DNA from: Candidatus Poribacteria bacterium
Lineage (GTDB): Bacteria > Poribacteria > WGA-4E > WGA-3G
Reading direction: 5' to 3'
NCBI GenBank assembly: GCA_022825665.1
Contig: JAJDWI010000010.1
Span: 2,912 to 66,911, forward strand
Length of the DNA stretch: 64,000 bases
The translations under genes were made by a program, and so were the position numbers. The notes below the pieces were generated by a model that saw only the letters and a program-made list of their open reading frames with translations, searched no databases and was not told where the DNA came from. Below, piece after piece: positions 6,180 to 50,463 of this stretch. Each line of letters begins with the position of its first letter. The stretch's first letter is position 1.

Positions 6180-7139
6180 ATGGCAAACATAAAGATTCCA
6201 AAAGGATGGGAGATCCCAGAAAACCGTATTACTCCTGAATCAGTTTATATTAATCGTAGAAAGTTCATCAAAGACCTCGGCATAGTAGGAGCGGGGGCTT
6301 TATCACTGTTCGGTTCGAGTGCATGTGCACAGAATAAAGGTGTAGCAAAACAACTTGAAGCTTATCAAAAAGAAAAACTCTCAGCAGTAAAGAATGAAAA
6401 TTTCACTGTCACAAGACCACAAACTAAGGAAATCGTCGCTGCAACCTACAACAACTTCTATGAGTTCACATCCTCGAAAAGTACCGTCTGGAAACGCGTT
6501 GAAAGGTTCAAAACGCGTCCGTGGGAAGTTGAAATTACCGGTCATGTTGAAAATCCGATGACCATAGATGTGGATGACTTAATTAAACAGATGCCACTTG
6601 AAGAGCGTATCTATCGTTTTCGCTGTGTGGAAACTTGGGCAATGGTAGTACCGTGGATCGGTTTCCCGATGAAAGCACTCCTTGAAAAAGTGCAACCGAA
6701 ATCTTCTGCAAAATACGTTCGGATGGAGACGTTTTTTGACCCTGATGTGGCATCACATCAAAACGATGCGCGTCTGCCGTGGCCCTATGTTGAAGGCTTA
6801 ACGCTCGCGGAAGCCATGAATGAACTTACACTTATGGTTGTTGGTATCTACGGACATATTCTACCACCACAACACGGCGCACCTCTGCGATTGATTGCTC
6901 CTTGGAAATATGGGTTTAAAAGCATCAAATCAATTACCAGTATAGAACTGACTGACAAAAAACCACGTAACTTTTGGAATGTTATTCTTCCGAGGGAATA
7001 CGGTTTTGAAGCAAACGTGAATCCAAAAGTTCCACATCCCCGTTGGTCACAAGCTTCTGAATGGATGATTGGCTCAATGGACCGATATCCGACAAAGATA
7101 TACAACGGTTACGGTGAATATGTAGCGCACCTTTACTAA
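6180..7139 (+). CDS. msrP: Protein-methionine-sulfoxide reductase catalytic subunit MsrP (YedY, molybdopterin)
   Basis: It has a Tat-type signal (RRKFIKDLG). NNFYEF, EERIYRFRCVETWAMVVPWIGFP, QHGAPLRLIAPWKYGFKSIKSI and HPRWSQA track E. coli MsrP along its whole length. Confidence 0.9.
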   Translation: MANIKIPKGWEIPENRITPESVYINRRKFIKDLGIVGAGALSLFGSSACAQNKGVAKQLEAYQKEKLSAVKNENFTVTRPQTKEIVAATYNNFYEFTSSKSTVWKRVERFKTRPWEVEITGHVENPMTIDVDDLIKQMPLEERIYRFRCVETWAMVVPWIGFPMKALLEKVQPKSSAKYVRMETFFDPDVASHQNDARLPWPYVEGLTLAEAMNELTLMVVGIYGHILPPQHGAPLRLIAPWKYGFKSIKSITSIELTDKKPRNFWNVILPREYGFEANVNPKVPHPRWSQASEWMIGSMDRYPTKIYNGYGEYVAHLY

Positions 7140-7175
7140 GGACAACGCTAATTTACGAATTCTGACATTCTCAAA

Positions 7176-7240
7176 GGTAGGAGAGAACTCCGATTCCCGA
7201 CTACAAACAGGTCGCGATTCGGAGATCGCTCCTACAGAAA
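7176..7240. repeat. Pair of inverted hairpin + CTAC modules directly upstream of serpin 1
   Basis: gtaggagagaactccgattcccgactac is followed by gtcgcgattcggagatcgctcctacag, and the two are diverged reverse complements. The second matches 55219-55244 and 52929-52953. Confidence 0.75.
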
Positions 7241-7272
7241 TAGCAAATTACAAACAAAGATGGAGGAAGCAG

Positions 7273-8535
7273 GTGAATAACAAACACATAGTCGGAAAAT
7301 CCGTGCCAAGTTTGATGATTCTCGTATTTCTGTTATTTGCCGGATGTTTTGATTCTGTTGTGGATACACTTAACCAAGCGAAGGAGGATGCTGAAGTTGC
7401 CTCCATAGATTCCAACGTTCCATCTGGAAATACCGAATTCGGTTTTAACCTATTCAATACAATCTGGGAATCTGAACAGAACCAGAATATCTTTATTTCT
7501 CCGTTCAGTGTTTCCACAGCCCTTGCAATGACCTTAAACGGTGCAGCTGGTGAAACAGAAGAAGCAATGATTGATACGTTACAACTACAAGGTATTACCA
7601 CCAATTCAATCAATTCCAGTTACTATCAATTACTCCAGACACTTCAGACATCAGACCCGAAAGTTACACTCACAATAGCAAACTCGCTTTGGGCGCGCGA
7701 AGGGGTGCCGTTCAAGCAGGATTTCCAACAGCGAAATAGCCAATATTTCAATGCGGAAATCACAAGCTTGGATTTTGCAGATCCAAATTCCCTAACAACA
7801 ATTAATCAGTGGGTAAACACCAACACAAACGGCAAGATCAAAAAAATACTTGATGAGATTGAGTCGAATGCAGTGTTATTTCTCATAAATGCAATCTATT
7901 TCAAAGGTGAATGGAAAACAGAATTTGACCCGTCAGCAACGAGTGATAGAGATTTCCATCTTGTAACTGGTAGCACAAAGCAAGTGCCAATGATGGCGAG
8001 GAAAGGTAATTACGCATACTACGAAAATCACCACGATAATTTCCAAGCGATTAGCCTTCCTTATGGAGAAGGACAGATGGGTATGTACATCTTCCTCCCG
8101 TCCAACAAATCCAACCTAAATACCTTTTTAGATTCATTGAACGCAGAAAATTGGGAAAATTGGATTTCACAGCTGCGGGAACAGGAAGTGATGGTCTATA
8201 TTCCAAAGTTCAAAATGGAATACGGAACAAAGGAACTCAACGACGCGTTGACAAGTCTCAGTATGGGTATCGCTTTTGATGATGATAACGCTGATTTCAG
8301 CCGTATGGCATCTTTAGACGATATCGGTGGCAATCTATATATAGAAAAAGTAGCACATAAAACCTTCATAGAAGTCAACGAGGAGGGTTCAGAGGCTGCT
8401 GCTGCAACCAGTGTTGGGATAGGGATTAGATCAATCCTACGTACAGTATTTAATGCGGATCGACCATTTTTCTTTGCTATCCGTGATAACGAAACAAAAA
8501 CGATTCTGTTTATGGGAACTGTTGTGGACCCATAG
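7273..8535 (+). CDS. Serpin (lipoprotein-type signal), predicted P1 = Arg
   Basis: GTG start lies 5 nt after GGAGGA. A lipobox-like LFAGC is present. Serpin hallmarks are FISPFSVSTALAMTLNGA, the hinge EEGSEAAAAT and DRPFFFAIRD. Counting 17 residues from the hinge Glu puts P1 at Arg386 (nt 8428-8430). Confidence 0.9.
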   Translation: MNNKHIVGKSVPSLMILVFLLFAGCFDSVVDTLNQAKEDAEVASIDSNVPSGNTEFGFNLFNTIWESEQNQNIFISPFSVSTALAMTLNGAAGETEEAMIDTLQLQGITTNSINSSYYQLLQTLQTSDPKVTLTIANSLWAREGVPFKQDFQQRNSQYFNAEITSLDFADPNSLTTINQWVNTNTNGKIKKILDEIESNAVLFLINAIYFKGEWKTEFDPSATSDRDFHLVTGSTKQVPMMARKGNYAYYENHHDNFQAISLPYGEGQMGMYIFLPSNKSNLNTFLDSLNAENWENWISQLREQEVMVYIPKFKMEYGTKELNDALTSLSMGIAFDDDNADFSRMASLDDIGGNLYIEKVAHKTFIEVNEEGSEAAAATSVGIGIRSILRTVFNADRPFFFAIRDNETKTILFMGTVVDP

Positions 8536-8579
8536 GATGTACGAAGTAGAAGTATACATTAAAAAGGAGACCTACTCTG

Positions 8580-9836
8580 GTGAACACAAAATATAGAAAA
8601 ATATGTGAAATAAATCTTATCCTCATGATGTGTGGATTGACACTACTTATTTTCATAGGTTGTGAACGTGAATTAGATCCAGAAATCATCAAAAGTGAAC
8701 CTGGAACTTTTGACCCAAATGTCGTCTCTGCTAATACCAAATTCGGCTTTAATCTATTCAATGAAATCCGAAAAATTGACCAAGATAAGAATATCTTTGT
8801 TTCTCCGTTTAGTGTTTCCGTTGCGTTGGCAATGACGTTAAACGGTGCAGCAGGTGATACAGAGCAAGCGATGGTCAATACTTTGCAGCTACAAGGGTTA
8901 GGCAACGAGTTAATCAATTCCGGTTATTCATACTTGAATCAGACACTTCAGACAGCAGATCCGAAGGTGACACTCACGATAGCAAACTCACTCTGGGGAA
9001 AACAAGGGATACCATTTAATCAGGATTTCTTGGATAGAAACGCACAATATTTCAACGCAGAGATTACAACACTGGATTTTAGCGATCCGAGTGCATCACA
9101 AACGATTAATATGTGGGTTGATAACAGTACCAATGGCAGAATACAGAAAATCGTAGACGATAACATTGACCCTCAAATGGTGTTATTTCTAATCAATGCA
9201 ATCTATTTCAAGGGATCTTGGCAAACAAAATTTGATTCCGAAAACACGCGTGATGCGGCGTTCCATCTTGAATCAGGAAGCACTAAGCAAGTGCCGATGA
9301 TGAATAGGACAGATGAATATATGCACTACGTAAACCTTGAGGATAATTTTCAGGCAATTAGCCTTCCTTATGGTGATGGACAGATGAGTATGTATATCTT
9401 CCTACCCTCGCGTGAATCCGATCTTAATACATTTTTGGATAGTTTGAATGCAGAAAATTGGGAAAATTGGATTTCACAGTTCCAAGAACGTAAAATATGG
9501 GTGCAAATTCCGAAATTTTCATTAGAATATGAAACAAGTCTTATTGATACGTTAACATCACTTGGTATGTCGGTAGCATTTGATGAAGGAAAGGCAGATT
9601 TTAGCCGTATGGCATCATTTGAGAACTTGGATAGAAATTTGTATATTGCAAAGGTGAAACATAAAACTTTCATAGAAGTTAACGAAGAGGGTTCGGAAGC
9701 TGCCGCAGTGACCGGTATCGGTATTGCTGTTACATCACTTCCACCACAGTTTATTGCAGATAGACCATTTTTCTTTGCAATTCGCGATAACAAAACTAAG
9801 ACGGTGCTATTTATGGGTACTGTGGTAGATCCATAG
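8580..9836 (+). CDS. Serpin paralogue (lipoprotein-type signal) with a different, one-residue-shorter reactive-centre loop
   Basis: The body is highly similar to the upstream serpin. It has lipobox-like FIGC and the hinge EEGSEAAAVT, and its RCL is GIGIAVTSLPPQF compared with SVGIGIRSILRTVF in serpin 1. Confidence 0.9.
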   Translation: MNTKYRKICEINLILMMCGLTLLIFIGCERELDPEIIKSEPGTFDPNVVSANTKFGFNLFNEIRKIDQDKNIFVSPFSVSVALAMTLNGAAGDTEQAMVNTLQLQGLGNELINSGYSYLNQTLQTADPKVTLTIANSLWGKQGIPFNQDFLDRNAQYFNAEITTLDFSDPSASQTINMWVDNSTNGRIQKIVDDNIDPQMVLFLINAIYFKGSWQTKFDSENTRDAAFHLESGSTKQVPMMNRTDEYMHYVNLEDNFQAISLPYGDGQMSMYIFLPSRESDLNTFLDSLNAENWENWISQFQERKIWVQIPKFSLEYETSLIDTLTSLGMSVAFDEGKADFSRMASFENLDRNLYIAKVKHKTFIEVNEEGSEAAAVTGIGIAVTSLPPQFIADRPFFFAIRDNKTKTVLFMGTVVDP

Positions 9837-9848
9837 GCGTAAGCATGT

Positions 9849-10769
9849 ATGACGTTTCAAATGAAATACGTTGTTTTTGTTTTATTATTACTTCCGTCAT
9901 TCTCCGTAGGTGCTTCATGGGAAACATCAGAAAGCACGCATTTTCGCTTATACTACAGAGAAAACACAGCAGATCCCGCGTCTATACTCGAAATAGCGGA
10001 AGATTTCTATGCTGAGATGCCTCGGATAACACGTCATATTCCAGATGAAACGATTAAAATATATATTTGTGATACCCAAAGAGCGTTTCAAGCCTTTGTT
10101 CATGCACCAATACAGGATTGGGCGGTTGGATGTGCGTTTCCGTTGAGTCGGCGTATTGTCATCCAAAATCCGAAACAGATAACAGTGGCGAAACTCCAAT
10201 TAGCGCAAGTTCTTCGACACGAAATTGCCCATGTTCTTTTTGGACAATATACTAAGAAAGCGGTTAAAGGAATGCCGTTATGGTTTGTGGAAGGTATTGC
10301 AATTCACTTCTCAAAGGAATGGGTGCCCGGTCGGCACGAAACCTTACTGAAAAATGTCTTCACAAAATCTATTTTACCGCTTAATGAGTTAACAAATAAA
10401 TTTCCAGTTTCACAGAATGGTGCGGATTTGGCTTATGCACAAAGTCAAGATGCCCTACGTTGGTTCGTTGAAGTTAATGGTACAGAACCATTATGGGCAG
10501 TTATTGACCTACTACATACAGGATCGAATCTCAACACTGCATTTAAATCAGTTCTCGGCTATGATCTTACAATCTTTGATATGCAATGGCGAGAATCACT
10601 ACCAAAACGTTATCATTGGGCATCTCTGCTATCCAGTTCATACATTTTTTGGGGTGGTTTGGCAGTGTTATTTTTGTTTTTCTATTTTATCAGTTGGAAT
10701 CGTAGACGAATGCGACTCAATAAACTTGCACAACAGGAAGAAGTCGTAGATGCCTTCTTCAGAAAGTAA
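9849..10769 (+). CDS. Peptidase MA-like zinc metalloprotease (HEXXH) with a C-terminal membrane anchor
   Basis: It has a signal peptide, LRHEIAHVLF (HEXXH) followed by WFVEGIAIHF, and a C-terminal TM helix with a basic tail. It starts 12 nt after serpin 2. Confidence 0.65.
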   Translation: MTFQMKYVVFVLLLLPSFSVGASWETSESTHFRLYYRENTADPASILEIAEDFYAEMPRITRHIPDETIKIYICDTQRAFQAFVHAPIQDWAVGCAFPLSRRIVIQNPKQITVAKLQLAQVLRHEIAHVLFGQYTKKAVKGMPLWFVEGIAIHFSKEWVPGRHETLLKNVFTKSILPLNELTNKFPVSQNGADLAYAQSQDALRWFVEVNGTEPLWAVIDLLHTGSNLNTAFKSVLGYDLTIFDMQWRESLPKRYHWASLLSSSYIFWGGLAVLFLFFYFISWNRRRMRLNKLAQQEEVVDAFFRK

Positions 10770-10775
10770 ATACCT

Positions 10776-11753
10776 ATGAATACTTACCTTTTTCCCCTCA
10801 CCCTTTTGCTCGTATGTTTCACAATGGTTGCAAATACACAACCGAAAAACCTATCACAATATCCTAATGAGTACACACGAGATGGACACGTAGTCGTCCT
10901 GCCTGACCACGGCACTGTCTATATTATTGCTGACCTACATGCACACTGGAACGATTTTAATCAGTGGCTTGGACAAACACGACTGATTGAACGTATAGAA
11001 GCAGGTGAAGATGTTTATGGAATTATGCTTGGGGATGTGATTGATTATAAACCTGATGAAAAGCCTGAACCACCTTATGGCGACATACAAATTGTTAACC
11101 GTGTGATTGAAATACAGCAACAACTTGGGGATAATGGGAAGAGACTTATCTATATTAGAGGAAACCACGAATTCGCGGCAGCAGACACTTACGCTGTGAT
11201 GAAAAGAAGCGGAATGTCCGATGATAATAGAAAGATTTTCATTGATAGATTATACAACAGCATAAACGGTAGTTACTATAAACAATTTAATTTCATTGAG
11301 CGAATGAATGATACACATTTTGATTTCATTATGAACCTTCCAACGGTCGTTATCGGTAAAAAGGGATTTGTGGCAGTTCATGCAGGTCCAGCGCGTAATA
11401 TTAATAGCATATCAGACCTTGTTACACCCGCTAAAGATACACTGGATGAGATGCTATGGGACCGATCAAAAATAGTCATGTTTGGCGGATATACATTGAA
11501 ACATACCGAGAACTTTCTCAACGCTCTCAATGCAAGATTTTTAGTTGTTGGACATACCCCCGTGGGACTTTTCCCACCAAGAAATGTTAAAGATGGTGTA
11601 GTCAGACTCGGAGGAAAACAGCTCATCTTTTCCACAGGTTACAGCGGAACCAAAGGTGGACAAACCTATATAGAAATTGATTTAGCCAAAAACTATTCCT
11701 CTGTTGATGAATTACAATTCGGTGTTAACATTCATCTTCTCTACCCGAAATAA
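10776..11753 (+). CDS. Secreted calcineurin-like metallophosphoesterase (PPP-type)
   Basis: It has a signal peptide and the motifs IIADLHAH, GDVIDY, RGNHEF and VGHTP. Confidence 0.75.
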   Translation: MNTYLFPLTLLLVCFTMVANTQPKNLSQYPNEYTRDGHVVVLPDHGTVYIIADLHAHWNDFNQWLGQTRLIERIEAGEDVYGIMLGDVIDYKPDEKPEPPYGDIQIVNRVIEIQQQLGDNGKRLIYIRGNHEFAAADTYAVMKRSGMSDDNRKIFIDRLYNSINGSYYKQFNFIERMNDTHFDFIMNLPTVVIGKKGFVAVHAGPARNINSISDLVTPAKDTLDEMLWDRSKIVMFGGYTLKHTENFLNALNARFLVVGHTPVGLFPPRNVKDGVVRLGGKQLIFSTGYSGTKGGQTYIEIDLAKNYSSVDELQFGVNIHLLYPK

Positions 11754-11770
11754 TAGTAGAGTGTCGTTGT

Positions 11771-12673
11771 ATGCGTGCGTTAATCTACATAATGACCCCT
11801 ATTCTGATTCTGACGATTATTCTTGCATCGCGCTTCGTATCATGGGAAAGACTAAAAGGGTTTGACAGTGATGCAGATAAACACCTAACTGACGGAACAC
11901 AATTGCTTGGAAAAGGGAAATTTTACCGATCCATATCCGAACTTACCCGTGCAATTGAGATTGAGCCAAAATATGCAGAAGCATACATCAATCGTGGACG
12001 TGCATACTACTATCTGGCACGATACAAAGATGCAATAGCAGATTATACACAGACCATATCACTCAATCAGTATATAGCCGATGCTTATGCCAGTCGTGGG
12101 GACGTTTATCGCGTCTTAAATGATATTCCACAGGCTATTGACGATTACACCGAATCACTCAAAGCAAGAAAAAATGCTCTTGTCCTGTCAAAACGCGCAA
12201 AATGTTATCTGCTGTCAGGAAAACCTGATGAGGCAATTCGCGATTATACTGACATTGTTAAGCATCGTCCTACCGCAATTGCCTACAACAACCGTGGCAT
12301 AGCATACCATAAAAAGTATCTATTATCAGATAAGAACGATAAATCGCAAAAGCACGCCTTAGCGGATTTTGACAAAGCCATTGAAATGCAACCACACTTC
12401 GCAATTGCGTATCTGAATCGTAGCGATATTCATGGAGATTTGGGGCAACAAAATTTGAAAGATGCCGATTTAACCAAGTCTATTGAACTGCTAACAGAGG
12501 CAATTGATAACTGGGAAAATGAACAGTATGAATTAATCCCTATTTATCTATGGCGTGCCGTAGCATTAAAGAAAAACAACCAGATTGACAAAGCACGACA
12601 CGATGTTAAGAGGATTTACGTGCTCATCAGCCAATTTTTCTTGAATAATATAAAGAATTTTGATATACTATAA
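11771..12673 (+). CDS. Membrane-anchored TPR-repeat protein
   Basis: It has an N-terminal TM helix and repeated 34-aa TPR signatures (AEAYINRGRAYYYLARYKDAIADY, ADAYASRGDVY, AIAYNNRGIAY, AIAYLNRSDIH). Confidence 0.8.
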   Translation: MRALIYIMTPILILTIILASRFVSWERLKGFDSDADKHLTDGTQLLGKGKFYRSISELTRAIEIEPKYAEAYINRGRAYYYLARYKDAIADYTQTISLNQYIADAYASRGDVYRVLNDIPQAIDDYTESLKARKNALVLSKRAKCYLLSGKPDEAIRDYTDIVKHRPTAIAYNNRGIAYHKKYLLSDKNDKSQKHALADFDKAIEMQPHFAIAYLNRSDIHGDLGQQNLKDADLTKSIELLTEAIDNWENEQYELIPIYLWRAVALKKNNQIDKARHDVKRIYVLISQFFLNNIKNFDIL

Positions 12674-12786
12674 GACAGATTACAAATTCGATAGGGTTAT
12701 TTAGTTTAGGACTTACGTATTTTCCATGATTTATCCAATAATTATGAACAAAATGGTTCAATTTTCAGTTGAATAGTGAGTATTTT

Positions 12787-12810
12787 GCGCGCTTACAAAG
12801 CGCGCCTACC
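12787..12810. repeat. gcgcgcttacaaagcgcgc + CTAC hairpin module
   Basis: The same module occurs at 25868-25890 and 31225-31247. Here it sits inside a longer imperfect palindrome (taggacttacg...gcataagtccta, about 12707-12830). Confidence 0.8.
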
Positions 12811-12938
12811 GTTCATGCATAAGTCCTATAGTTTTAAGATTTCTAAGTAGATGGGTGTTACTTAAGCGTTTATATGGATTGTGAAAACTATATAACTCGG
12901 TAAATTCCACAACACACAATTAGGAGAAACAGGTATCA

Positions 12939-13211
12939 ATGACTGGAGAAGCATTAGGATTGGTTGAGACAAGAGGATTGGTTGGCAGTATTGAGGCAGC
13001 TGATGCAATGGTAAAGGCTGCGAATGTTCGACTCGTCGGGTACCAACAGATTGGTGGTGGATATGTCACTGTGATGGTGCGTGGAGATGTAGGTGCTGTA
13101 AAAGCTGCTACAGATGTTGGCGCAGAAGCTGCTGCACGTGTAGGCGAAGTTGTTTCAGTCCATGTGATCCCAAGACCACACAACGATGTTGAAACTATTC
13201 TACCAAGTTAA
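12939..13211 (+). CDS. Bacterial microcompartment shell protein, BMC-H (PduA/EutM/CcmK-type hexamer)
   Basis: [27 protein letters not shown]...[20 protein letters not shown] is a canonical single BMC domain. AGGAG lies upstream of the ATG. Confidence 0.9.
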
Positions 13212-13267
13212 CCTTAATTTCAGGAACAATCCTTAGGAATGTTTGAATACATAGAAACATAGTTAAG

Positions 13268-13975
13268 ATGCATGACCAAGACTTAGTCAAACTAATTACC
13301 CGCAGAGTAGTGGATCAATTGTCTAATGACCAATCTTGCAGCGGGTGTGCTTTGCGAACTTGTGATGCGGGTAATCGTGCATGTGATGTCGCATTAGCGA
13401 ATCAGAAAATACCGGTCGGTGTTTCTGCCAGACATGCACACGTGACACAGGAAGACCTTGAAATCCTTTACGGTGCTGGACATCAACTTACCGTCTATGC
13501 GCCACTATATCAACCCGAAGCTTTTGCTGCAAATGAAACAGTTACTGTCGTTGGTAAACGGATGCGTGCAATTGAACATGTTCGTATTCTTGGTCCGGTA
13601 CGAGATTATTCACAAGTAGAGGTCGCAAAGACAGAGGCAATCCGCCTCGGTATAGACCCACCTATAAGGGATTCAGGCGATCTTGATGGGGCTGAAGCGA
13701 TAACACTCGTAGGTCCTGCTGGAAGTGTTTATTTAGAAGAAGGTGCAATCTGTGCAGCGAGACATATTCACATGAAACCTGAGCAGGCTGTAGCGTTTGG
13801 TATCACAGAATCAGATGAATTAAAAATTCGTATACCGGGTGAACGTGCATTAACATTTGAAAATATCCGTCCGAAAATTCATGAATCTTATGTGCTTCAG
13901 ATGCATCTGGACACTGATGATTCAAACGCCGCTGGTTTGAAAGGTGGCGAAGCTGTTGAACTACTACGCGACTAA
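13268..13975 (+). CDS. pduL: Phosphate acyltransferase PduL with an N-terminal encapsulation-peptide-like helix
   Basis: It carries two PduL repeats (PVGVSARHAHVTQEDL and ICAARHIHMKPEQA). An extra ~35-aa N-terminus contains the amphipathic DLVKLITRRVVDQLS. Confidence 0.85.
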   Translation: MHDQDLVKLITRRVVDQLSNDQSCSGCALRTCDAGNRACDVALANQKIPVGVSARHAHVTQEDLEILYGAGHQLTVYAPLYQPEAFAANETVTVVGKRMRAIEHVRILGPVRDYSQVEVAKTEAIRLGIDPPIRDSGDLDGAEAITLVGPAGSVYLEEGAICAARHIHMKPEQAVAFGITESDELKIRIPGERALTFENIRPKIHESYVLQMHLDTDDSNAAGLKGGEAVELLRD

Positions 13976-13977
13976 AC

Positions 13978-14718
13978 ATGACACCAGAACAGATCGAACA
14001 AATTGAAAAAATAGTTGAGCGAGTGCTTCAAGAACATAACAATAGCACCCAAGAATCCGAAAAACATCTACTGTCAATACTTGGCGCAACACAACTCCCA
14101 TTAGAACAGATACTTCAACAATTCCAAACATGTATGCAGGAAGGATGGAATATTCGAATTATTTTATCCGAACTTGCAACTAAAGTATTAAATCTTGAGT
14201 CTATTAATTCGACTTTTGGTAAAGAAAACATATTGCTGGAAAACGAGTTAACTGATATTCCATCTATTGTTGAAAGTTATTCGCAGATTGTACTACCCGC
14301 ACTTTCCTATCCAATGGCTGGAAAATTGGCTTTGAAGTTAGTTGATACGCCTTGTACCTATTTGGTCTACCAAGCACTGTGTTGCGGAAAACGGGTTATA
14401 GCAGCATCAGATCTTACGAATACAAAAAAGTATGTAGATAAAAAATCACAGACTCTTGACCAAATTGAACTGGAGCATGTAAACACGTTAACCGAATTTG
14501 GCGTTCAATGGATAACAGTTGATCAGATTGCGGAAACAGTTCGTGAAGGTGGTTTGCCAAATCGAGCAAATATATCAACACCTGTCATCAGTGCATCTAC
14601 TATCTCGAATCTGACATCTGATGTCCAAGAGTTGGTTTATACAGAACCTACTATCATTACACCTCTGGCGCGCGAGCAAGCGCAAAAACGGGGTATCAAA
14701 CTCACACCAAAGTCGTAA
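13978..14718 (+). CDS. Hypothetical BMC-associated protein with an encapsulation-peptide-like N-terminus
   Basis: It starts 2 nt after the pduL stop. The N-terminal PEQIEQIEKIVERVLQEH is an amphipathic helix followed by a polar linker. I recognise no domain in the rest, apart from a weak Rossmann/flavoprotein-like pattern. Confidence 0.4.
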   Translation: MTPEQIEQIEKIVERVLQEHNNSTQESEKHLLSILGATQLPLEQILQQFQTCMQEGWNIRIILSELATKVLNLESINSTFGKENILLENELTDIPSIVESYSQIVLPALSYPMAGKLALKLVDTPCTYLVYQALCCGKRVIAASDLTNTKKYVDKKSQTLDQIELEHVNTLTEFGVQWITVDQIAETVREGGLPNRANISTPVISASTISNLTSDVQELVYTEPTIITPLAREQAQKRGIKLTPKS

Positions 14719-14875
14719 TATAATATGTGGTAAATTAGAAAAATAAATATACACTTTTCCAACGGTAGGTAAGGTTTTCTAACCTCGCAGATGCAAAGTG
14801 TCCAATTTGATTCTAATATTTACCATAGTCGGATTTCAAAGAGAAACTTCTGTAATCTGACGCGTATTATGACCC

Positions 14876-14904
14876 TTGACAATTTTGTGAAGAAATAGTA
14901 TAAT
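14876..14904 (+). promoter_or_regulatory. Consensus sigma70-type promoter (TTGACA-17-TATAAT)
   Basis: Both hexamers are exact and the spacer is 17 nt. It lies about 190 nt upstream of the 15095 CDS. Confidence 0.55.
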
Positions 14905-15094
14905 TTTAGCAATTATGATAGAAAAGCGATATTAAGATGGAAACCTTATTTATATCAGATCCACAATAACCTAAAACAAGGACGAGTAATAACAGAATTA
15001 ATTGAGATAGAACAGAAGAAATAGATATATTAATTGATCTTGTTAACCATCAATTATCCATGATGGTATAAGATGCTTACTTAGGAGAGTTCTC

Positions 15095-16672
15095 ATGATA
15101 AAACGAATTTTTACTTTAACAATCGCAGGACTCCTCGGCTGCATGCTATTAGGAACGTTAGCATCAGTGAGTTTAGCCGATTACGACTATTACACTGACA
15201 GACTGAGTCGTGAACATAGAATCGCAAGTGACGTAGATGAATGGATAGAACGCGGCAACGCAACAATCACTGCAAGCCCTATATTTGAAAACGGAATGCG
15301 TCTTACCGCATGGGCAAGTACACATCAAGAACCGGATAACTATGAATTTGCAATCGCAAGTGGTGTATACCTTTTTGAGATACCAAGCAGTGCACAATCT
15401 GTTGAAATAGTAGTACGATACAAAGGTGAACCCAACAAGTTTGAAATAAACGATCATTATGAACCTGTTGCAGGACGTGTTTGGATTCGTAACCTCAAAC
15501 GTGAAACGACACGTCGGGGGTACAACGACCAAAATGCATCGGAAACAAGGTATGGTGATACCTTTGTCCTACGGGCAAAAAACCGTTCTGAAACTATCAA
15601 GATACCGGTCGCAGGACATGTTGACCGAGGGTGGATGGAGCTTCATATTGTTGCTGAAGGTGGTGAACAACTTGATGTTGAATATATTGAAGTTTCAACA
15701 TATCGCAGAGCACCTAAAGTCCGTGTAGTTCAGCACTATACCCCAACGTATCGTTGGCGTCCATGGCATAGATATACTTATCTATACTTTTACGATGGAC
15801 CTATTTTTTACCACTCTGGATACAACTCCTACCTGTGTTGGAGTTACCCAGTCTACGATCATAATTTCCTTACAATTCGTTCTTATTATGGCGGATACTT
15901 AGGACGTTACCGTACATACTACCCATCACGATATGTGTATTACCACTCACCTTATTATTATGGTAGTTACGGTAGAGTTACACCAGTATATCGGAAACGG
16001 ACACAGTTAAATAGATGGAGTGCAAAACACGAATCGGTACGCAAGCAATATTCTCGGAGTCGGTTGGCAACACCTTCGCGAACTGCAGAACGAACACAAA
16101 CTCAGACTGATGTTCGTGCTGTAGTCGAAAACCATCGAAGGCAAGCACCGCCCTCAACAGAACGTGTTAGCAGGTCAACCATCATTTCTCAGAAACAACG
16201 AGCATCAGTGGCAAGGTTGACACCTCAACAGAATAATACTGTCCGGTCATATAGTAGTAGAACACGTTCTTCAGTCCAGACAACAGATAGACAACGGAGA
16301 CTGATCCTTAATTCACGCTCAAGTGTGAATACAAACAGGAGTAGGACTTCAGCAATAAATGATAGATCTTCCACATATCAAAGAAGATCATTATCTTCTT
16401 CAAGTCGGACGAGTACTTCCTCAAGTTCACGGACGAGTAGTACCATAGACCGAACAAAACAACGCAACTCAACTGTTACGTCATCAAGGTCTACTCCGAC
16501 GCGGACCCAATCACAAAGGGTTAGTCGTACGCCATCGTCCAGTTCACGCACTCGGTCGTCAACCTCTACTCGAACATCAACAAGTTCAAGTTCGAGTAAT
16601 GATGACGATGACGATAAGAGTACTACCCGGAGTCGGACATCAACATCCGAAAGGTCAAAACGAAGAAGATAA
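15095..16672 (+). CDS. Secreted or lipoprotein-like protein with a Tyr-rich segment and a long Ser/Arg/Thr-rich basic tail
   Basis: It has a signal peptide (LLGC), a ~190-aa N-terminal domain and a Tyr-rich stretch (YYHSPYYYGSYGR). The last ~220 aa are dominated by S, R and T, with SSSSNDDDDDK near the end. Confidence 0.5.
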   Translation: MIKRIFTLTIAGLLGCMLLGTLASVSLADYDYYTDRLSREHRIASDVDEWIERGNATITASPIFENGMRLTAWASTHQEPDNYEFAIASGVYLFEIPSSAQSVEIVVRYKGEPNKFEINDHYEPVAGRVWIRNLKRETTRRGYNDQNASETRYGDTFVLRAKNRSETIKIPVAGHVDRGWMELHIVAEGGEQLDVEYIEVSTYRRAPKVRVVQHYTPTYRWRPWHRYTYLYFYDGPIFYHSGYNSYLCWSYPVYDHNFLTIRSYYGGYLGRYRTYYPSRYVYYHSPYYYGSYGRVTPVYRKRTQLNRWSAKHESVRKQYSRSRLATPSRTAERTQTQTDVRAVVENHRRQAPPSTERVSRSTIISQKQRASVARLTPQQNNTVRSYSSRTRSSVQTTDRQRRLILNSRSSVNTNRSRTSAINDRSSTYQRRSLSSSSRTSTSSSSRTSSTIDRTKQRNSTVTSSRSTPTRTQSQRVSRTPSSSSRTRSSTSTRTSTSSSSSNDDDDDKSTTRSRTSTSERSKRRR

Positions 16673-16758
16673 ACCAGCAGAAGTAATATAGTGATATTGA
16701 CATATACGATGCCTCGTGCATTTTTTGCGCGGGGCATCGTCAACAATAAGAGGAATTA

Positions 16759-17310
16759 ATGCGTTTTTTATTGACCCTTCTGATTTTGTTGTTGAGCATA
16801 CAATTTTGTTTCGCTCAAGAGGTTAACAACCTAAATGTTCCCGCTGAACCTGAAAAATCCATAAGACTTATTTCACCTATTGGTACAATGGTCCGTTCAA
16901 CTGTTTTTCCCAGTTGGGGACAATTTCATAGTCGCAACTACTTTCGTGGAGGTTTAATTCTTCTCGGAATTGGAACTTCAGCAGTTGGAGCATATTTCGC
17001 AAATCAATCTTTACAAAGTCAATATGACAACTACATACTTACCGCAAGTTATGAACCAGATAATTCTGACCTTGTATTAGCAAGTTACGACAAGGCAAAT
17101 CAGAGATATAAACTCAGAATGTTTTTTATTTATACAGGTATAGGAATCTGGGCATATAGTATTATAGATTCTTATGTAAGTGCGAACTTTTATAATGCTA
17201 ACTCACAAGTTCGTTCAATTCAAGAGGATGCACAAAATATTGAGAAATTGGGGCTCCAAGTTGGAATCAATCCATCACGACTTTATTTAGGAGTCGTCAA
17301 GACATTTTAA
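16759..17310 (+). CDS. Membrane protein, DUF5683-like
   Basis: It has a signal peptide. FPSWGQFHSRNYFRGGLILLGIGTSAVGAYF and a second TM helix resemble the DUF5683 architecture as I remember it. Confidence 0.4.
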   Translation: MRFLLTLLILLLSIQFCFAQEVNNLNVPAEPEKSIRLISPIGTMVRSTVFPSWGQFHSRNYFRGGLILLGIGTSAVGAYFANQSLQSQYDNYILTASYEPDNSDLVLASYDKANQRYKLRMFFIYTGIGIWAYSIIDSYVSANFYNANSQVRSIQEDAQNIEKLGLQVGINPSRLYLGVVKTF

Positions 17311-17328
17311 TTTGGAGGTTAGATTACT

Positions 17329-17889
17329 ATGTTAAAGGAATTAGGAAAAATAAGCAGTGTGCTCGTTTTAGTAGCATTTATTATTGGATGCGGAGATGTT
17401 GATAAAGTGAATCAAGTGCCACCCGAAGACTTTTTGGCTATTAACGGGGTTTTGAAACGGTGGCGAGAAGGTTATGAAACTGAAGACGTTGAAACCTATA
17501 TGAGTGCCTATTGGGCACAAGGGTTCCGCTACGTATCTGATATGGGAACTGATGGCGACAAAACTGATGATCTGGAGTTTGACGATATCAGAGATGAACG
17601 TGATTCTGCAACTCGCGTCTTTAGCAGGTTTCAGGATATTGAAATAGAACTTTCTGTCCCCCCCGAAATATCTATCAATGAAGACGGGGATCAAGCCGAA
17701 GTTAGAAATCATTACCGAATCCAAGGATTTGTAGCAGATGGCGAATCGCTTGAAGGTGGATACACAGGCTGGTTCGCAGAAGGTGATAATCTGTTTATCT
17801 TTGAGAAAAGAGATGGCGAATGGCGTATTACCGAATGGTATGACGAAGCCTTCAACGATGAAGAAATTCGCATTGCTAACAATTTATAA
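17329..17889 (+). CDS. Lipoprotein with an NTF2-like (SnoaL/DUF4440-type) domain
   Basis: It has the lipobox IIGC. The pattern WREGYETEDVETYMSAYW...EKRDGEWRITEW is typical of NTF2-like folds. Confidence 0.5.
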   Translation: MLKELGKISSVLVLVAFIIGCGDVDKVNQVPPEDFLAINGVLKRWREGYETEDVETYMSAYWAQGFRYVSDMGTDGDKTDDLEFDDIRDERDSATRVFSRFQDIEIELSVPPEISINEDGDQAEVRNHYRIQGFVADGESLEGGYTGWFAEGDNLFIFEKRDGEWRITEWYDEAFNDEEIRIANNL

Positions 17890-17943
17890 AGTTATACAGT
17901 CTTAAGGAAGGAGGACAATTTTCTCTCGATTCTTCGACGAAAA

Positions 17944-19359
17944 TTGACATACATGCCTCAAAAAGAGGAACCGTTGCATGACTACCTACATTTTGTTCGG
18001 AAGCATATATTTGTAATTTGCTTGTGCACATTATTGGTTTTAGGAACTGCCTTGGTCATTTCACTTCGTATTCCTAAAACATATTCGGCTTCCACGTCAA
18101 TGCGTCTGATCCAATCAAGTTCCGCCTCTCCTATCTCTTCTGCTAACTTGTTTCAATCGGTATTTTCAGGTGGTATGAACAGGAGAGATATGGCAACAAT
18201 TAGTAAAAGATTTTCAACGGAATCAATGCTAAACGCTGCAGTTGAAAACTTGGAAGAAAATAACTTGGGAGGTATACGACACTTCCCAAGTGTTGGGAAC
18301 CTAAAGCGTAAACTGAAAGCGCAGATAGACCCTGAGGCTGATTATATTGAACTGTCAATTGAATTAACGGAATCCGAAGGGGGAGAACGTAACGCAGCAC
18401 TTCTGGTTAACCAACTGGCACGAGACATGCAAACGCTACGGAGCGAAGATGAAAAAACGAAGTTGGCAAGACGTCAGAAATTCTTACAGCAGAAACGAAC
18501 GGAAATTGACATAGAAATACAACAACTCATAAGCGAAACCCGTAACTTCATCCGTGAAAATAGGAGTCCTGAGACGTGGTACCCTATGTTAGCAAATTTG
18601 TTGGAACAGCATCGGAAATTGCAAGAACGTCTTGGGATCTCTGAACAGGCACTTCACACAGCACGTGGACAATTAACCCATTATAAAACCCAACTTGAAA
18701 ACCTTCCAAAACAGGCACAAATCTCAGAAACCCATAATCTGAATCCACTTTGGCTACACCAGCAAGAGAAAATTATTGATTTAGAAACTCAGCGCATCGG
18801 TGATAGTGAAAAAGTTGGAAAAAGTTCCCATGAAATTGCGGGTTTAGATGCGCAAATAGATAATATCCAAAATCAAATTGAAACAACTCCCCAAACAACC
18901 ACTACCAATACATTTGGAACCTCTGCACATTATACCTATATACAAAATCAACTAATCGAATTGCCACCAATCATAGATGGTTATGAGAACGAAACAATAC
19001 AACTCAGGAAAGAACTACGAGATATCAACGGAGAACTACAAAAGTTATTAAACCAAATCCCTGAAAATCAACATACCTTGACGCAATTACGCACAAAAAT
19101 AGAACTTGCTGGATCAATAAAGGAAGAAATTGAAAAACGTTATCTTGAATCCGAGATTATAAGTGCTGAGACCGATGTTACACCTAACCAGAAGGGTGGA
19201 ATTGAGATTGTTGATATCGCTGTACCGAGAAAAGTTCCAGTTAGTCCACAACACAAACTGATTGTTATATTGGCAGGAGTTGTTGGATTATGTCTCGGTA
19301 TTACTCTTGCTTTGTTAATTGAATATATTACCCATACTAAAAATAGTTTCCAAAGTTGA
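17944..19359 (+). CDS. Polysaccharide chain-length determinant (Wzz/GumC-like) without a kinase domain
   Basis: It has an N-terminal TM helix followed by PKTYSASTSMRL, a long coiled-coil periplasmic region and a C-terminal TM helix. The start is uncertain: TTG at 17944 or ATG at 17953. Confidence 0.65.
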   Translation: MTYMPQKEEPLHDYLHFVRKHIFVICLCTLLVLGTALVISLRIPKTYSASTSMRLIQSSSASPISSANLFQSVFSGGMNRRDMATISKRFSTESMLNAAVENLEENNLGGIRHFPSVGNLKRKLKAQIDPEADYIELSIELTESEGGERNAALLVNQLARDMQTLRSEDEKTKLARRQKFLQQKRTEIDIEIQQLISETRNFIRENRSPETWYPMLANLLEQHRKLQERLGISEQALHTARGQLTHYKTQLENLPKQAQISETHNLNPLWLHQQEKIIDLETQRIGDSEKVGKSSHEIAGLDAQIDNIQNQIETTPQTTTTNTFGTSAHYTYIQNQLIELPPIIDGYENETIQLRKELRDINGELQKLLNQIPENQHTLTQLRTKIELAGSIKEEIEKRYLESEIISAETDVTPNQKGGIEIVDIAVPRKVPVSPQHKLIVILAGVVGLCLGITLALLIEYITHTKNSFQS

Positions 19360-19497
19360 ATCACAATTCCCAATGTCATTTCGTTGATTTGGGAGTTTTT
19401 GTGTACTTTGGAAATATTTTTTTATTGTTGCAATATTTTGACACTTATGGTATGATTTTTCTGAATTATATAGTTACGATCATTTACTTTTGATAAC

Positions 19498-19526
19498 TTG
19501 ACAAAAAATTACATCTTTGATATTCT
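19498..19526 (+). promoter_or_regulatory. Sigma70-like promoter (TTGACA-17-TATTCT)
   Basis: This is a hexamer match only. It lies about 315 nt upstream of the 19842 CDS, inside a 480-bp AT-rich intergenic region. Confidence 0.4.
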
Positions 19527-19841
19527 AAACACTTAATAAGCGTTTTGTGGAGAGTTACTCCCAAAACATCCTTAAATAATGGAGAGAACCAATTTCTGCT
19601 TATCAATAATATCAAATATCATAGGCAGATATGAAATATAACCGAATGGTGTGTAAATAACTAAAATACGGTATCTGTTACAAGACATAACGGGTATTTT
19701 CTCTTTCGGTTTACAAATAATAATTACTGGTTCAATTCATTATAAGGTTTCGGAAACCAGATGCCAGCACATAACCGTTACATATTATTGTAGGTTTCTA
19801 ATATCCGAACTAATATTTTCCTAAGGAGGAATACCAAACTA

Positions 19842-22800
19842 ATGAACAAGTTAAAACGAATTATTGATGTTTTGCTTGTAGTTACTTGCATCCTAAGCAT
19901 AATTGTGCTATACGGTTGTGGAGCACAAAGTCTTGGACCGCAAGAACCTCTCTTGCCTACTATTGAGGGAGACTCTAAATTCTCAGACCGTTTCCGATTA
20001 GAAGAGGAACCGAAGTTCTTCTATGACCTATTTGGTAAAGAACTACTGGAAGGTAGTGAAGTACACAACTACCGTGAAGAGAAACAGTTTAATCAGAACG
20101 GTGAATTGGTTGTCGGTTGGACAGGTCAGCTTGATAGTGAACGTTTCACAATACAGTTGGACCGGACAATCTTGACAGAAGATTCGTACAGAGGTCGATA
20201 TACTGAGTTTGCAATTGGTGACCACATACGTCTTAAACCGTCTACCCTATTCCCAAATAGGTATGCAATATACAAAACAGAATTTGATGGATTTCGGTGG
20301 GATATCTCTTTTGCACAAGAAAGACATCTCTTTACCCTAATCAATTCACGTATCTCAAACCCTGTGCAACTTGCAGACGCAGCAGCAAACCTTGCACCTA
20401 ATCTTGGGCGTAGAAATGGGTTAAATGAAGATGCAGGTTTACGACATATTGAAAATGCACGTCTTGTAGGTTTCCGTGGACAAGGTCTTTTAGGAGACAT
20501 TTTTCGTGTCGGGTTTACCTATATCAACTTGCATAAAGAACATCCAGAACGCGTAGAAAACCCGTTTATGGGAACCGTTGCAAATACCCCACCAGAAAGC
20601 ATTACTGTCGTCTTTCGTGATGATTCTCCTGAAGACAATCACCTATATGAAACCTTTATTAATACGAATGACCGAGCAGGACTTTCGGGAGATGAACTCC
20701 AGAATATCCTTCAGGATAGGTTCCAAGGTGGTGTCGGTGCGGCTTTCAAAATGATGAAAATCACGGTTATTACACAAGCACTTGAAGAAATAAGCGCAGA
20801 TGACATTGAAGCGGGAATTGAACCTAATCTTCTACCTGAAGCGCAACAAGAAATTGATATTTTTATTGATGACATAGAACCTGTTGATCCTGCAGTTGAC
20901 CAAGTACAGGATTCCGTTGATGGTGAATGGAAAATCGCTGAAGGTTTCAGTAAAATGAAATATGACCTAATATTTGCTGATCACGATATTGACCCGCGGA
21001 CAGTTAAAGATGTGATGTTTGAAATGGTCGTTGCGGGTGATTACAACATTGCCGTTATCGGTTTTAGTGAGGCAAATTTAGCCGAATCCGATCCCGAAAT
21101 TCAAGAATGGATTAAAACTGAAGATGGGCATATTCAAATGCCGTATCGTGACATTATTGAAGCTCCCGGAAACTACGGTCAGTCTTCGGATTATACTGAC
21201 AACAGAGCAAGTCTCCGTCATAATCCTGCTAATTGGGAAGGTGAGGGAAGACCTCGAAAAGTCACATACCGTTATGGTGCCGCAAGAGCTGCGCTTCTCT
21301 ACGGTTTAGACCTGGAAGGCACAGTTGGAAATGTATTTGTAAGGGCACACTATTCCATTAATGGAAAATATAAACAGTATCCTACTATTCCTAAGGATCA
21401 GGTTGGATTTAGTCGTGTCAAAACCGTTATTGAAACAGAAGACGGGGAAGAAACGACTAATATTTCAATCGGTGCAGATGGAGTTGCCATTGATGCCAAC
21501 GGTATACCGACATACTCAGAAGCCACGGGTGAACGTTTTGAAGCGAGGCTCGGTGGAGATGGCACAGATGAAGACGGAGATGGAATGTTGGGAAGAGAAA
21601 CCGCATGGTTCGTCCAACTGAAATCACGTTTTGGCAAACTTTATCTTGAAGGTGTCTTATACCACATTGATCCTGGTTATACTACCACTTATTTAAACTT
21701 CGGTTCAAATGGTGGACGTGACCAAACATATACTCTTCCTCCTGCTGGACCTTCTACGGAACGAGCTCCGTGGGATGAAACTAATTATGCGTTAGTTGAA
21801 GACGACGATGATGATGACGATTGGCCTGATGATTTTGACTTTGATGGTGTTCTCCCTCGCGCTGATGATAGGGATCAGAACGGTATCTTAGACTACCAGG
21901 AAGATTTCCTTATTTTTGAGGCAGACCCACCGGTCTTTACTGACTTAATCGATTTGAATAATAACGGAACCATCGATTCGTTGGAAGATGATTTTGAGCC
22001 ACAATACGAATACGGCATTGACCGAGAAGGTTATCACCTCAAAGCAGAATACGACTTACTTGATAACCTATCCCTTCATGTCGGATGGTTGAATGAAAGT
22101 GAAGTCTCAAGCCGTCGAAAAAATGACTCTAAATACCTACACGTCATCTATCAACGGGACATTCCCGATTTCGGTACTGTTCTCTTCCAAAATAGATTCG
22201 TCCGCGTAAGAGATGATATCCCTGATTACACCATCACACTGCAGGTAGGTGAATTGGAAGCCGAACAAACCGAGGATGAACTTGATTACTACAATGCTCG
22301 CGTAAACACAACAACGTTGCAATTCCTCTATCAGGCAATACCAAACCTGACACTGGAAGCAAAACTTCTCGTCGTTTTGCAGAAGCAATTTGAACTTGAT
22401 GAAGAAGATGCAATATTTTTGGATGTTGAATACGATTCGGGAGCTGAGTTGTTTGAACCGGATGAACGGATAGATTTCCTTGTACCTGATGAACAAGTTC
22501 GAACAAGTGGACAAAGGAGAGAATATCCTTTCTATCCTGACCATGGCATTAACGCACTTGATCCTTCTGATACCGGTCTAATTTACGATGTAGATAACTG
22601 GAAGTTACGTCGTTACCCCGAAAGGAACATACGTAGCCAACAGACTATTCTCAAGGCAAAATATGAAATCCCACTCGGGGATCTTCCGTATGTAGATAGA
22701 ATCGGTGAAGATTTGACGTTGACACCGATGGTCAAATATATATGGGACCGTGCTTTTGATAGAACTGCAGAAGAAATTGGTGAAGTTCTCAACGCACGGC

Positions 22801-23174: not shown

Positions 23175-23515
23175 ATACCTTAATTTTATGCTGTGCTGGG
23201 GGCAATTCTTTCTTTGCATCCAGCACCACATATTCAAATAATATGGTTATGTTTTTACGTCTATTATCAAATGTAGCGCAACTCCATATCCATTCAGGTG
23301 TTACCTTATATGAGTATATTGTTCAGGAAAATTACTTTAACCTATAGCGTAAATAGTCTAAAGACAACGTTTCTTTTGAAGTTATCATGTGTTGATAATT
23401 CAGAAGTAACTCATAAACTATAGCACATTTGGAGATGTGCTGTTTATATTATTAGATTGTTCTTATTGATAATATACTGCCGAATAGGCATTTTAATAAA
23501 GGAGAACCAGGACGA

Positions 23516-24574: not shown

Positions 24575-24635
24575 TTATAGCCTGGCGCGGGGCTTTGGCT
24601 CCACGTCTTGCTCCTAAATAAGGGAGAATCCTGAA

Positions 24636-25085: not shown

Positions 25086-25133
25086 CGCGTGTAATCTGAT
25101 TACAGTTCCAACCATTATGGAAGGAGGATACAC

Positions 25134-30491: not shown

Positions 30492-30788
30492 TTGTAAGCT
30501 AATACTCCAAGTAATATAAATTATTGGTATCCGTTAAAATTATGTATAATAAGAAAATAAAGATAATATATGATTTGGATACCGATTCGTTAGCACGTAT
30601 AGGCTTTTCTGCCTTCAATTCTCCTTAGGTTAACTCTTTTATCAAGTTAATAGTATATCCTAAATCCATTAAATCGTCAAGTATATTTTCCTAATGAACG
30701 AGGTCGTTTATGGTGAATTATTGAATAAGTTGACCTTATATTCGACATGTGTTTCCTCCAAATTTATTGGCAATTTCCTCCTTTAAAA

Positions 30789-31297: not shown

Positions 31298-31337
31298 CTG
31301 CTCTGTATTAGGTGCGAGATCACATTTTTGTTCTTTT

Positions 31338-32565: not shown

Positions 32566-32592
32566 TATCATATAGAAATGGTATAAATTGGT

Positions 32593-50457: not shown

Positions 50458-50463
50458 AAATTA

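Follow-up and report, generated by a model that had tools for sequence, protein, structure and literature searches.

Three adjacent genes in a Candidatus Poribacteria genome raise the question of how an apparently isolated set of bacterial microcompartment (BMC) genes should be read. The stretch that we analyzed (contig JAJDWI010000010.1; 64 kb in all, here called the window) encodes a BMC-H shell protein, a PduL-type phosphotransacylase and, directly afterwards, a protein of 246 amino acids (aa) that we call ORF246 after its open reading frame (ORF). The original prediction, made from the DNA letters, described this trio as either a satellite of a main locus elsewhere or an unusually minimal arrangement, with ORF246 as an uncharacterised lumen cargo. 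Its profile matches place ORF246, as a divergent member, in a flavoprotein-like family (PF02441, PvmL) already known from BMCs, and it is not an orphan. Building on the gene identities, family membership, conservation and genomic contexts that we observed, we consider it probable that the trio represents the J-L-M core block of a scattered metabolosome of the FRAG2 type, in which PduL would recycle coenzyme A (CoA) in the lumen and ORF246 would act as a PduM-like link between core and shell. The features on which this reading draws are listed below.

12939-13211, plus strand: BMC-H hexamer shell protein, PduA/PduJ/EutM-like, 90 aa (PF00936)
13268-13975, plus strand: PduL-type phosphotransacylase with an N-terminal extension, 235 aa (PF06130)
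13277-13327, plus strand: N-terminal amphipathic helix of PduL, about aa 4-20, candidate encapsulation peptide (conservation, alignment)
13337-13384, plus strand: Cys4 insert C-x2-C-x4-C-x6-C of PduL, aa 24-39, between the helix and the catalytic domain (CSGCALRTCDAGNRAC)
13978-14718, plus strand: ORF246, BMC-associated protein of predicted flavoprotein fold, PduM-slot type, 246 aa (hhalign, AlphaFold2, NCBIfam)
13981-14037, plus strand: N-terminal amphipathic helix of ORF246, aa 2-20, candidate encapsulation peptide (conservation, AlphaFold2, hydrophobic moment)
14563-14715, plus strand: C-terminal module of ORF246, about aa 196-246, containing IITPLAREQAQKRGIKL, candidate shell-binding module (invariant residues, profile matches)

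An ORF check of the window placed the three genes head to tail on the plus strand, with the start of ORF246 two nucleotides past the PduL stop, and Pfam and NCBIfam scans identified the first two products, so that the arrangement originally described holds. The BMC-H protein matched PF00936 over residues 5-80 of its 90 in Pfam (E 1.1e-30, 105.9 bits against a cutoff of 24.5) and the NCBIfam EutM model NF012018 with 133.5 bits against a cutoff of 133; an AGGAG sequence lies 13 nt upstream of its ATG. It is 91-99% identical to its orthologues in other Poribacteria, and it contains the motifs DAMVKAANV and IPRPH, identical to those of the BMC-H in the propanediol utilization (PDU) operons L009 and L010 (L numbers denote loci that we compared). 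We take the edge lysine of DAMVKAANV and IPRPH, a PRPH-type motif, to be the defining edge and interface residues of BMC-H proteins. PduL matched PF06130 across residues 49-225 (E 2.5e-67, 226.5 bits against 25) and the NCBIfam model NF011652 (233.9 bits against a cutoff of 209). As the phosphotransacylase domain begins at residue 49, PduL has an N-terminal extension.

The window was searched for further BMC genes by Pfam scans, which took in essentially all ORFs of at least 130 aa, smaller ORFs being covered by tblastn only, and by tblastn of the whole window with genuine BMC-P, aldehyde dehydrogenase, PduS, PduO, PduC and EutJ-like sequences from classical operons. In agreement with the original prediction, these searches found no BMC-P, BMC-T, aldehyde dehydrogenase or signature enzyme in the 64 kb, and the tblastn matches comprised the one BMC-H and the one PduL only. 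A weak tblastn match at 51347-51499 (E 0.012) to EutN/CcmL/PduN sequences was attributed to chance; the corresponding ORF (51329-51667) has no Pfam match, is unlike BMC-P and was not matched by genuine BMC-P sequences. Searches in and around the trio for intrinsic terminators, tRNAs and Rfam families gave no match.

What, then, is ORF246? An identical protein is encoded on a 136-kb ENA metagenome scaffold, and its close homologues, about 246 aa long, number 364; among the best 120 of these, all that carry a source name come from Candidatus Poribacteria, and they span 56-96% identity. Nothing in Pfam scored above threshold, the Flavoprotein model PF02441 reaching 13.6 bits against 22.7 (E 0.053). 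The best NCBIfam match was TIGR02536, over residues 73-241 (E 1e-8; 35.1 bits, below the cutoff of 152.6), and the NCBIfam PduM model TIGR04493 matched residues 202-242 only (E 7e-4; 19.5 bits, below the cutoff of 50), while the Pfam PduM model PF15953 gave no match. When the Poribacterial ORF246 family was compared with the BMC PF02441-like family using hhalign, the two aligned over their full length, at 100% and E 5.8e-49 across 244 columns. In an AlphaFold2 model calculated with 27 orthologues (pLDDT 80), an N-terminal helix at residues 3-22 is joined by a linker to a Rossmann-like core, after which comes a small beta-alpha subdomain at the C-terminus. The best matches of the model in the PDB were HFCD/UbiX flavoproteins (PPC decarboxylase, UbiX, EpiD and MrsD, E 3e-6 and weaker), with a target-normalised TM score of about 0.6. 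A profile search of 1.84 billion representatives returned 764 relatives at E <= 1e-3, which among the matches listed were mostly full-length proteins of 240-290 aa, and a word-limited protein search with the broad family alignment A3 recovered only 20 proteins. In a sample of 52 family members, all matched TIGR02536 weakly and 45 matched PF02441 at E <= 0.01, whereas NCBIfam PduM models were matched by 12 and Pfam PduM PF15953 by 8. We discarded the idea that the ARD motif near the C-terminus of ORF246 belongs to Co_AT_N, a Pfam domain of adenosyltransferases, as no scan gave a Co_AT_N match. The family to which these searches point is an established one: Sutter 2021 (PMC8217296) provided nine BMC-specific hidden Markov models (HMM02441_01-09) for Flavoprotein, under the gene name PvmL, and the library of encapsulation-peptide models in the same work (EP-HMM) already has entries for the BMC flavoprotein family.

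Relatives of ORF246 lay in BMC contexts wherever the flanking DNA sufficed; commonness outside such contexts, which would have told against the original prediction, was not observed. In L010, the gene order is pduA-B-C-D-E-G-H, two BMC genes, PduL, the family member, PduN, PduO, PduP, PduS and PduT, so that the family member fills the pduM slot. A genome scan yielded 40 loci, mostly from Bacillota, a sample biased to PDU-type operons by the narrow alignment (A5) used as the query. BMC-H was present in all of them, PduL in 37 and a EutJ-like gene directly upstream in 34; in all 40 the family member lies between pduL (or the eutJ-like gene) and pduN, and in 39 BMC-P follows immediately downstream. 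Family members were also detected in a purine-type BMC (L007) and on metagenome contigs carrying PduL, BMC-H, aldehyde dehydrogenase and PduS, and in FRAG6 and FRAG7 loci a flavoprotein adjoins BMC-H (Sutter 2021, PMC8217296). Taken together, the full-length family match and the BMC-operon contexts of the relatives indicate that ORF246 belongs to a BMC accessory family. The uncharacterised lumen cargo first proposed is thus better described, from these comparisons, as a divergent PF02441-family member in the pduM position, with a degenerate flavin motif.

ORF246 shares with the BMC PF02441 family (PvmL) an N-terminal helix, a Rossmann-like core, a C-terminal module and the BMC context, but differs from it in falling below the Pfam threshold and in the degeneration of two sequence elements, the PASANT-like motif and the FTGG loop. 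The PASANTINK segment of EpiD aligns with PvLTqNTaaK in the family; at this site ORF246 and its orthologues have PALSYPMAGK, in which P112 and M113 are invariant, and the FTGG loop of the family reads GAT in the Poribacterial proteins. The PASANT-type motif contacts flavin mononucleotide (FMN) in HFCD enzymes. Its degenerate state makes ORF246 more likely to be a structural linker than a catalytic cargo.

We next consider the two N-terminal helices, both of which had been noticed as resembling encapsulation peptides and both of which proved to be present and conserved in orthologues. ORF246 begins with MTPEQIEQIEKIVERVLQEH, followed by a polar linker. Among orthologues, mean column identity is 0.81 in the helix and 0.52 in the linker (aa 19-30), which is the least conserved part of the protein save one loop, and the segment 19-27 of the AlphaFold2 model has a pLDDT below 50. 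Hydrophobic moments were calculated in 14-residue windows and compared with those of 2000 shuffled sequences. The ORF246 helix has a moment of 0.76, the maximum of the protein, which only 1 of the 2000 shuffles reached, and is no less amphipathic than validated encapsulation peptides; PduM(1-23) has a moment of 0.81. A helix of this kind is present throughout the wider flavoprotein-like family, and PduM resembles ORF246 in starting with an amphipathic helix, MNGETLQRIVEEIVSRL in PduM and MTPEQIEQIEKIVERVL in ORF246; the first 23 residues of PduM suffice to target green fluorescent protein to the core of the Pdu microcompartment (PMC12108088). In PduL, the extension contains the helix DLVKLITRRVVDQL. 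All ten Poribacteria compared retain it, and it aligns with the helix at the N-terminus of PduLs from classical PDU operons, such as LVKLITQKVIEKL in L029; no other window of the protein has so high a hydrophobic moment (0.58).

The Cys4 insert of PduL is about 20 residues long. Its four cysteines are invariant in all ten Poribacterial PduLs compared (those of the window, L003, L004, L006, L008, L051-L054 and L056), including the deep-branching L008, and the insert is absent from all 23 PduLs of classical PDU type. A metal or redox site is one possible role for it, and its presence in Poribacteria is a small new point of this analysis.

At the other end of ORF246, the orthologue alignment (A1) has T228, P229, L230, A231, R232, A235, K237 and G239 invariant. 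The C-terminal module that contains them matches residues 115-153 of PduM, 164-203 of TIGR02536 and, weakly (E 0.16), 7-46 of EutQ, and the short C-terminal motif that the original prediction had likened to one in other BMC-associated proteins is therefore real. The profile of the whole family matched Escherichia coli EutQ(1-106), taken from L067:18303-19004:-, at 91.7% in hhalign (E 8e-7, 36% identity over 44 columns, EutQ residues 2-47), and a PduM profile of 15 sequences matched it at 96% (E 2.9e-9, 106 columns, PduM residues 58-163). Against the PDU-slot subgroup, the PduM profile gave 93% over the last 47 residues. These alignments suggest that a module of about 45 residues, LIT..DI...IITP.A(R/K)(D/E).A...GI.I, is common to the C-termini of the BMC flavoprotein-like family (alignment A3), to PduM (residues 115-163) and to the N-terminal end of EutQ, where positions 2-46 match.

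The three groups differ in how this putative module is embedded. PduM (PF15953/TIGR04493) is like ORF246 in occupying the operon slot directly after pduL and in having an N-terminal helix and a TALAR(D/E)-type C-terminal module, but at 163 aa it is shorter and has no counterpart to the first half of the fold. EutQ carries the module at its N-terminus, as a fusion with a cupin acetate kinase. The TIGR02536 model (eut_hyp, from Firmicute eut operons) apparently lacks the N-terminal helix and first strand of ORF246, as indicated by the offset of the match. Published work has reported that EutQ attaches to the shell through residues 9-41 (H1/H2) and to cargo peptides through H3/H4 (PMC12487888), and that loss of PduM in Salmonella leads to partial separation of core and shell (PMC9132943). 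PduM has been described as having no known homologues outside Pdu compartments (PMC12108088, 2025), and our literature search, which covered the searchable library, found no paper linking PduM to the flavoprotein family or stating that PduM, the flavoproteins and EutQ share a module.

The trio as a whole resembles the pduJ/K-pduL-pduM-pduN block of PDU operons, both consisting of a BMC-H, a helix-bearing PduL and a third protein that starts with a helix and has (I/V)(I/V)T-x-(L/M)-A-x-(D/E) in its C-terminus; this order was seen in all 40 Bacillota-type loci and in L010. The Poribacterial block differs in that it stops before the pentamer gene and has no eutJ-like, diol dehydratase or PduO/P/S/T gene nearby.

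We assessed how far the arrangement is conserved. The three genes lie side by side in nine separate Poribacterial loci (the window, L003, L004, L006, L051, L052, L053, L054 and L056), down to an ORF246 identity of 56%. In L008, a metagenome-assembled genome (MAG) of a pelagic, deep-branching member of the phylum (GCA_002168185.1, NHBU01000104.1, 1-2119), PduL and ORF246 are paired without a BMC-H directly upstream; a MinC-like gene lies on the other strand, and after it the contig ends. The conserved unit may therefore be the PduL-ORF246 pair rather than the trio. Ratios of nonsynonymous to synonymous substitution rates (dN/dS) were 0.02-0.07 for BMC-H and 0.04-0.07 for PduL over all comparisons; against L051 and L053 they were 0.02-0.03 for BMC-H, 0.05-0.07 for PduL and 0.22-0.33 for ORF246. 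All three genes are under purifying selection. The ORF246 copy of L052 (LXNI01004876.1, 1534-2271) has an in-frame stop at codon 50, which represents either a sequencing error or a pseudogene, and the dN/dS of 0.86 obtained against it was discarded as an artefact of that stop.

Conservation extends beyond the trio, as an order of about 16 genes (6180-25574 in the window) is kept in other Poribacteria (L003, L004 and L006), down to loci whose ORF246 is only 56-58% identical. It runs from a molybdopterin oxidoreductase through one or more serpins, Peptidase_MA_2, Metallophos and TPR genes to BMC-H, PduL and ORF246, and continues with a 525-aa protein, DUF5683, SnoaL-like and Wzz/GNVR genes, an unknown protein of about 1110 aa, ExbB and ExbD. 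The genome GCA_022394755.1 has the same gene order as the window, and the pelagic L008 MAG keeps the downstream half. The 525-aa protein (15095-16672, plus strand), which adjoins ORF246 in all Poribacterial loci examined, has no Pfam match; its N-terminal signal includes an LLGC lipobox, its middle part is rich in Tyr, and its long tail, rich in Ser, Thr and Arg, ends with a run of Asp. The serpins are represented in the window by two tandem full-length genes (7273-9836, plus strand; 420 and 418 aa; Pfam Serpin E about 1e-124), whose position is conserved in other Poribacteria. Serpins are uncommon in bacteria.

The spacers on either side of the trio also contain sequence elements, one of which may bear on its transcription:

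14876-14904, plus strand: perfect sigma-70 consensus TTGACA-17-TATAAT (12/12 match), in the 376-nt spacer between the trio and the 525-aa gene

This consensus is probably the start of the next transcription unit downstream, which agrees with the report that BMC-H and PduL apparently form one polycistron (Jahn 2016, PMC5087111). On the other side, a GC-rich hairpin (GCGCGCT-TACAA-AGCGCGC, about 12786-12808) lies in the 265-nt spacer 5′ of BMC-H, with no T run after it. The spacer ranges from 44 to 265 nt between genomes and measures only 44-113 nt in L003, L004 and L006. Given this variation and the lack of a T run, we did not treat the hairpin as a conserved element, and it is probably not one.

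The locus itself has been known since 2014, as it is the published BMC-A region of Poribacteria and a FRAG2-type fragment. Kamke 2014 (PMC3909097) defined BMC group A by a single pfam00936 gene with PduL next to it, ahead of hypothetical and exopolysaccharide genes, and placed the pfam03319 pentamer genes in two other regions of Poribacteria. The gene order at 6180-25574 is the same as in BMC-A of Kamke 2014 and Jahn 2016, including the nearby Wzz/GNVR and ExbB/ExbD genes. The BMC-A papers (PMC3909097, PMC5087111) treat the third gene as encoding a hypothetical protein, leave the N-terminal helices and the Cys4 insert undescribed, and propose that 1,2-propanediol is used at the membrane. According to Axen 2014 (PMC4207490), all Poribacterial loci are satellite-like, and some satellite-like loci of Poribacteria/BRC1 encode PduL or aldehyde dehydrogenase. 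Sutter 2021 (PMC8217296, Supplementary Data 2) defined FRAG2 as a BMC-P triplet and two standard BMC-H genes that are dispersed, 21 of its 33 loci coming from Poribacteria. One BMC-H and no BMC-P in 64 kb is consistent with such dispersed shell genes, as is the host lineage, Candidatus Poribacteria. Unlike the trio, the FRAG2 text mentions no flavoprotein, while FRAG6 and FRAG7 have one. Of the two alternatives first offered for the locus, the satellite thus stands insofar as the remaining parts would lie elsewhere; it is neither an orphan nor minimal in a new sense, and the lineage has no main locus.

We can now set out the reading that we prefer. The trio would be a single operon, with the microcompartment genes otherwise scattered round the Poribacterial chromosome. 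BMC-H would form hexagonal facets, and the amphipathic N-terminal helix of PduL would bring the enzyme into the core. PduL would convert acyl-CoA and phosphate to acyl-phosphate, freeing CoA for an aldehyde dehydrogenase encoded elsewhere. ORF246 would be a long-form relative of PduM, having the HFCD/UbiX flavoprotein fold with a decayed flavin-site motif. Its encapsulation-type helix would anchor it in the cargo core, and its ITPLAR C-terminal module, putatively homologous to H1/H2 of EutQ and to the C-terminus of PduM, would touch the shell. It would be a low-abundance core-shell link and not an enzyme. By analogy with PduM and EutQ, ORF246 probably ties the enzyme core to the shell.

Several points weigh against this reading. 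The moment of the PduL helix was reached by 235 of the 2000 shuffles and is not significant by itself. Direct comparisons of the Poribacterial subgroup profile were weak, hhalign giving 74% with PduM and 22% with EutQ, so that the links of ORF246 to both proteins depend on transitivity via the wider family. An AlphaFold2 model of PduM (pLDDT 91) had no significant match in a Foldseek search of the PDB, the top one being UbiX at E 0.03, and the link between PduM and the flavoproteins is therefore carried only by the profiles and the position in the operon. For this genome, a BMC-P triplet, a second BMC-H and an aldehyde dehydrogenase are assumed from the literature on other Poribacteria. Encapsulation in a closed compartment in Poribacteria, the linker role of ORF246 and its loss of flavin binding are inferred rather than observed, the last from a single motif and the role of that motif in HFCD enzymes. 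Finally, antibodies against BMC-H gave rings at the cell membrane (Jahn 2016, PMC5087111).

That immunosignal, which co-localises with ExbD (Jahn 2016, PMC5087111), is an argument for a different model, put forward in the same paper, in which there are no closed icosahedra and the PduL chemistry is organised by sheets or patches of BMC-H on the cytoplasmic membrane, beside conserved envelope and TonB-type genes. The neighbours of the trio (the lipobox protein, DUF5683, Wzz/GNVR, the 1110-aa protein and ExbB/ExbD) are kept where ORF246 is only 56-58% identical, and partly in L008, which also speaks for this model. However, conserved gene order is not by itself proof of a functional link, a perfect promoter consensus separates the trio from the genes downstream, Poribacteria encode a BMC-P triplet, which is needed only for shell closure, and the core-targeting-type helices of PduL and ORF246 appear homologous to those of classical closed metabolosomes. 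We regard membrane sheets as quite unlikely. Somewhat better placed, and the likeliest of the rivals, though in our view still unlikely, is the possibility that ORF246 is an active flavoenzyme or electron shuttle in the compartment, engaged in cofactor recycling or redox, with a helix that only delivers it as cargo. Its predicted fold matches the FMN enzymes PPC decarboxylase, UbiX, EpiD and DmrB (E 3e-6 to 1e-4), the wider family retains a PASANT-like PxLTxNTAAK and matches PF02441 in 45 of the 52 members sampled (E <= 0.01), and Axen 2014 (PMC4207490) noted that flavin-related families recur in BMC loci and suggested such a role for the PF02441 proteins found there. What tips the balance towards a linker is that the Asn and Thr of the motif have become an invariant Pro and Met in the Poribacterial proteins, with GAT in place of FTGG, that ORF246 scores under the PF02441 threshold, that its dN/dS is 3-10 times that of the neighbouring enzyme PduL, and that PduM, which is related and fills the corresponding slot, retains only half of the fold and is structural.

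Least probable of the rivals, and very improbable in absolute terms, is that the mini-locus is a decaying remnant of a PDU-like operon with no present compartment function. Kamke 2014 (PMC3909097) raised a possible lack of function, and the single local shell gene, the degenerate flavin motif and the stop at codon 50 in L052 could all be taken in this sense. Such decay is hard to reconcile with dN/dS values of 0.02-0.33 across the three genes, with the retention of the trio over a phylum-wide range of divergence, with a Cys4 insert and two helices that are invariant or strongly conserved, or with BMC-H transcript levels above those of housekeeping genes in sponge metatranscriptomes (Jahn 2016, PMC5087111).

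A more ambitious version of our interpretation, which we hold to be unlikely, would make the trio a distinct minimal assembly core, with a lineage-specific metal or redox centre in the PduL Cys4 insert and with ORF246 standing, in evolutionary terms, midway from BMC flavoproteins that bind a cofactor to the truncated PduM. If this were true, the Cys4 centre could gate encapsulation or carry electrons in a shell without PduS/PduT, and a single shell-binding module would recur in PduM, in the flavoprotein-like family and at the N-terminus of EutQ, as a general core-shell linker across metabolosomes.

Other parts of the window have features of their own. Downstream of the glutamate synthase gene, no convincing ORF was seen in an AT-rich stretch of 2.1 kb (30492-32592, GC about 0.35), which also lacks Rfam matches. 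On the minus strand at 49052-51294 are genes for a short-chain dehydrogenase, GTP cyclohydrolase I and a double-domain 6-pyruvoyl-tetrahydropterin synthase, which point to a pterin or queuosine-type pathway; beside them are a 112-aa ORF without a Pfam match and a rhodanese gene. At 56817-58496 on the plus strand, a gene for a ParA-like AAA_31 ATPase is followed by a HEPN RiboL-PSP gene, and the two could form a toxin-antitoxin or defence pair.

While the locus itself adds nothing beyond the literature since 2014, the hypothetical gene of the BMC-A papers can now be read as encoding a PduM-slot, linker-type protein of predicted flavoprotein fold, and the profile comparisons suggest a module shared by PduM, the flavoproteins and EutQ; both points are new. 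Poribacteria are dominant sponge symbionts, and FRAG-type microcompartments occur in many candidate phyla. If the shared module is real, the coupling of core and shell in compartments of several types would be explained by one conserved element, which would also offer a handle for their engineering.

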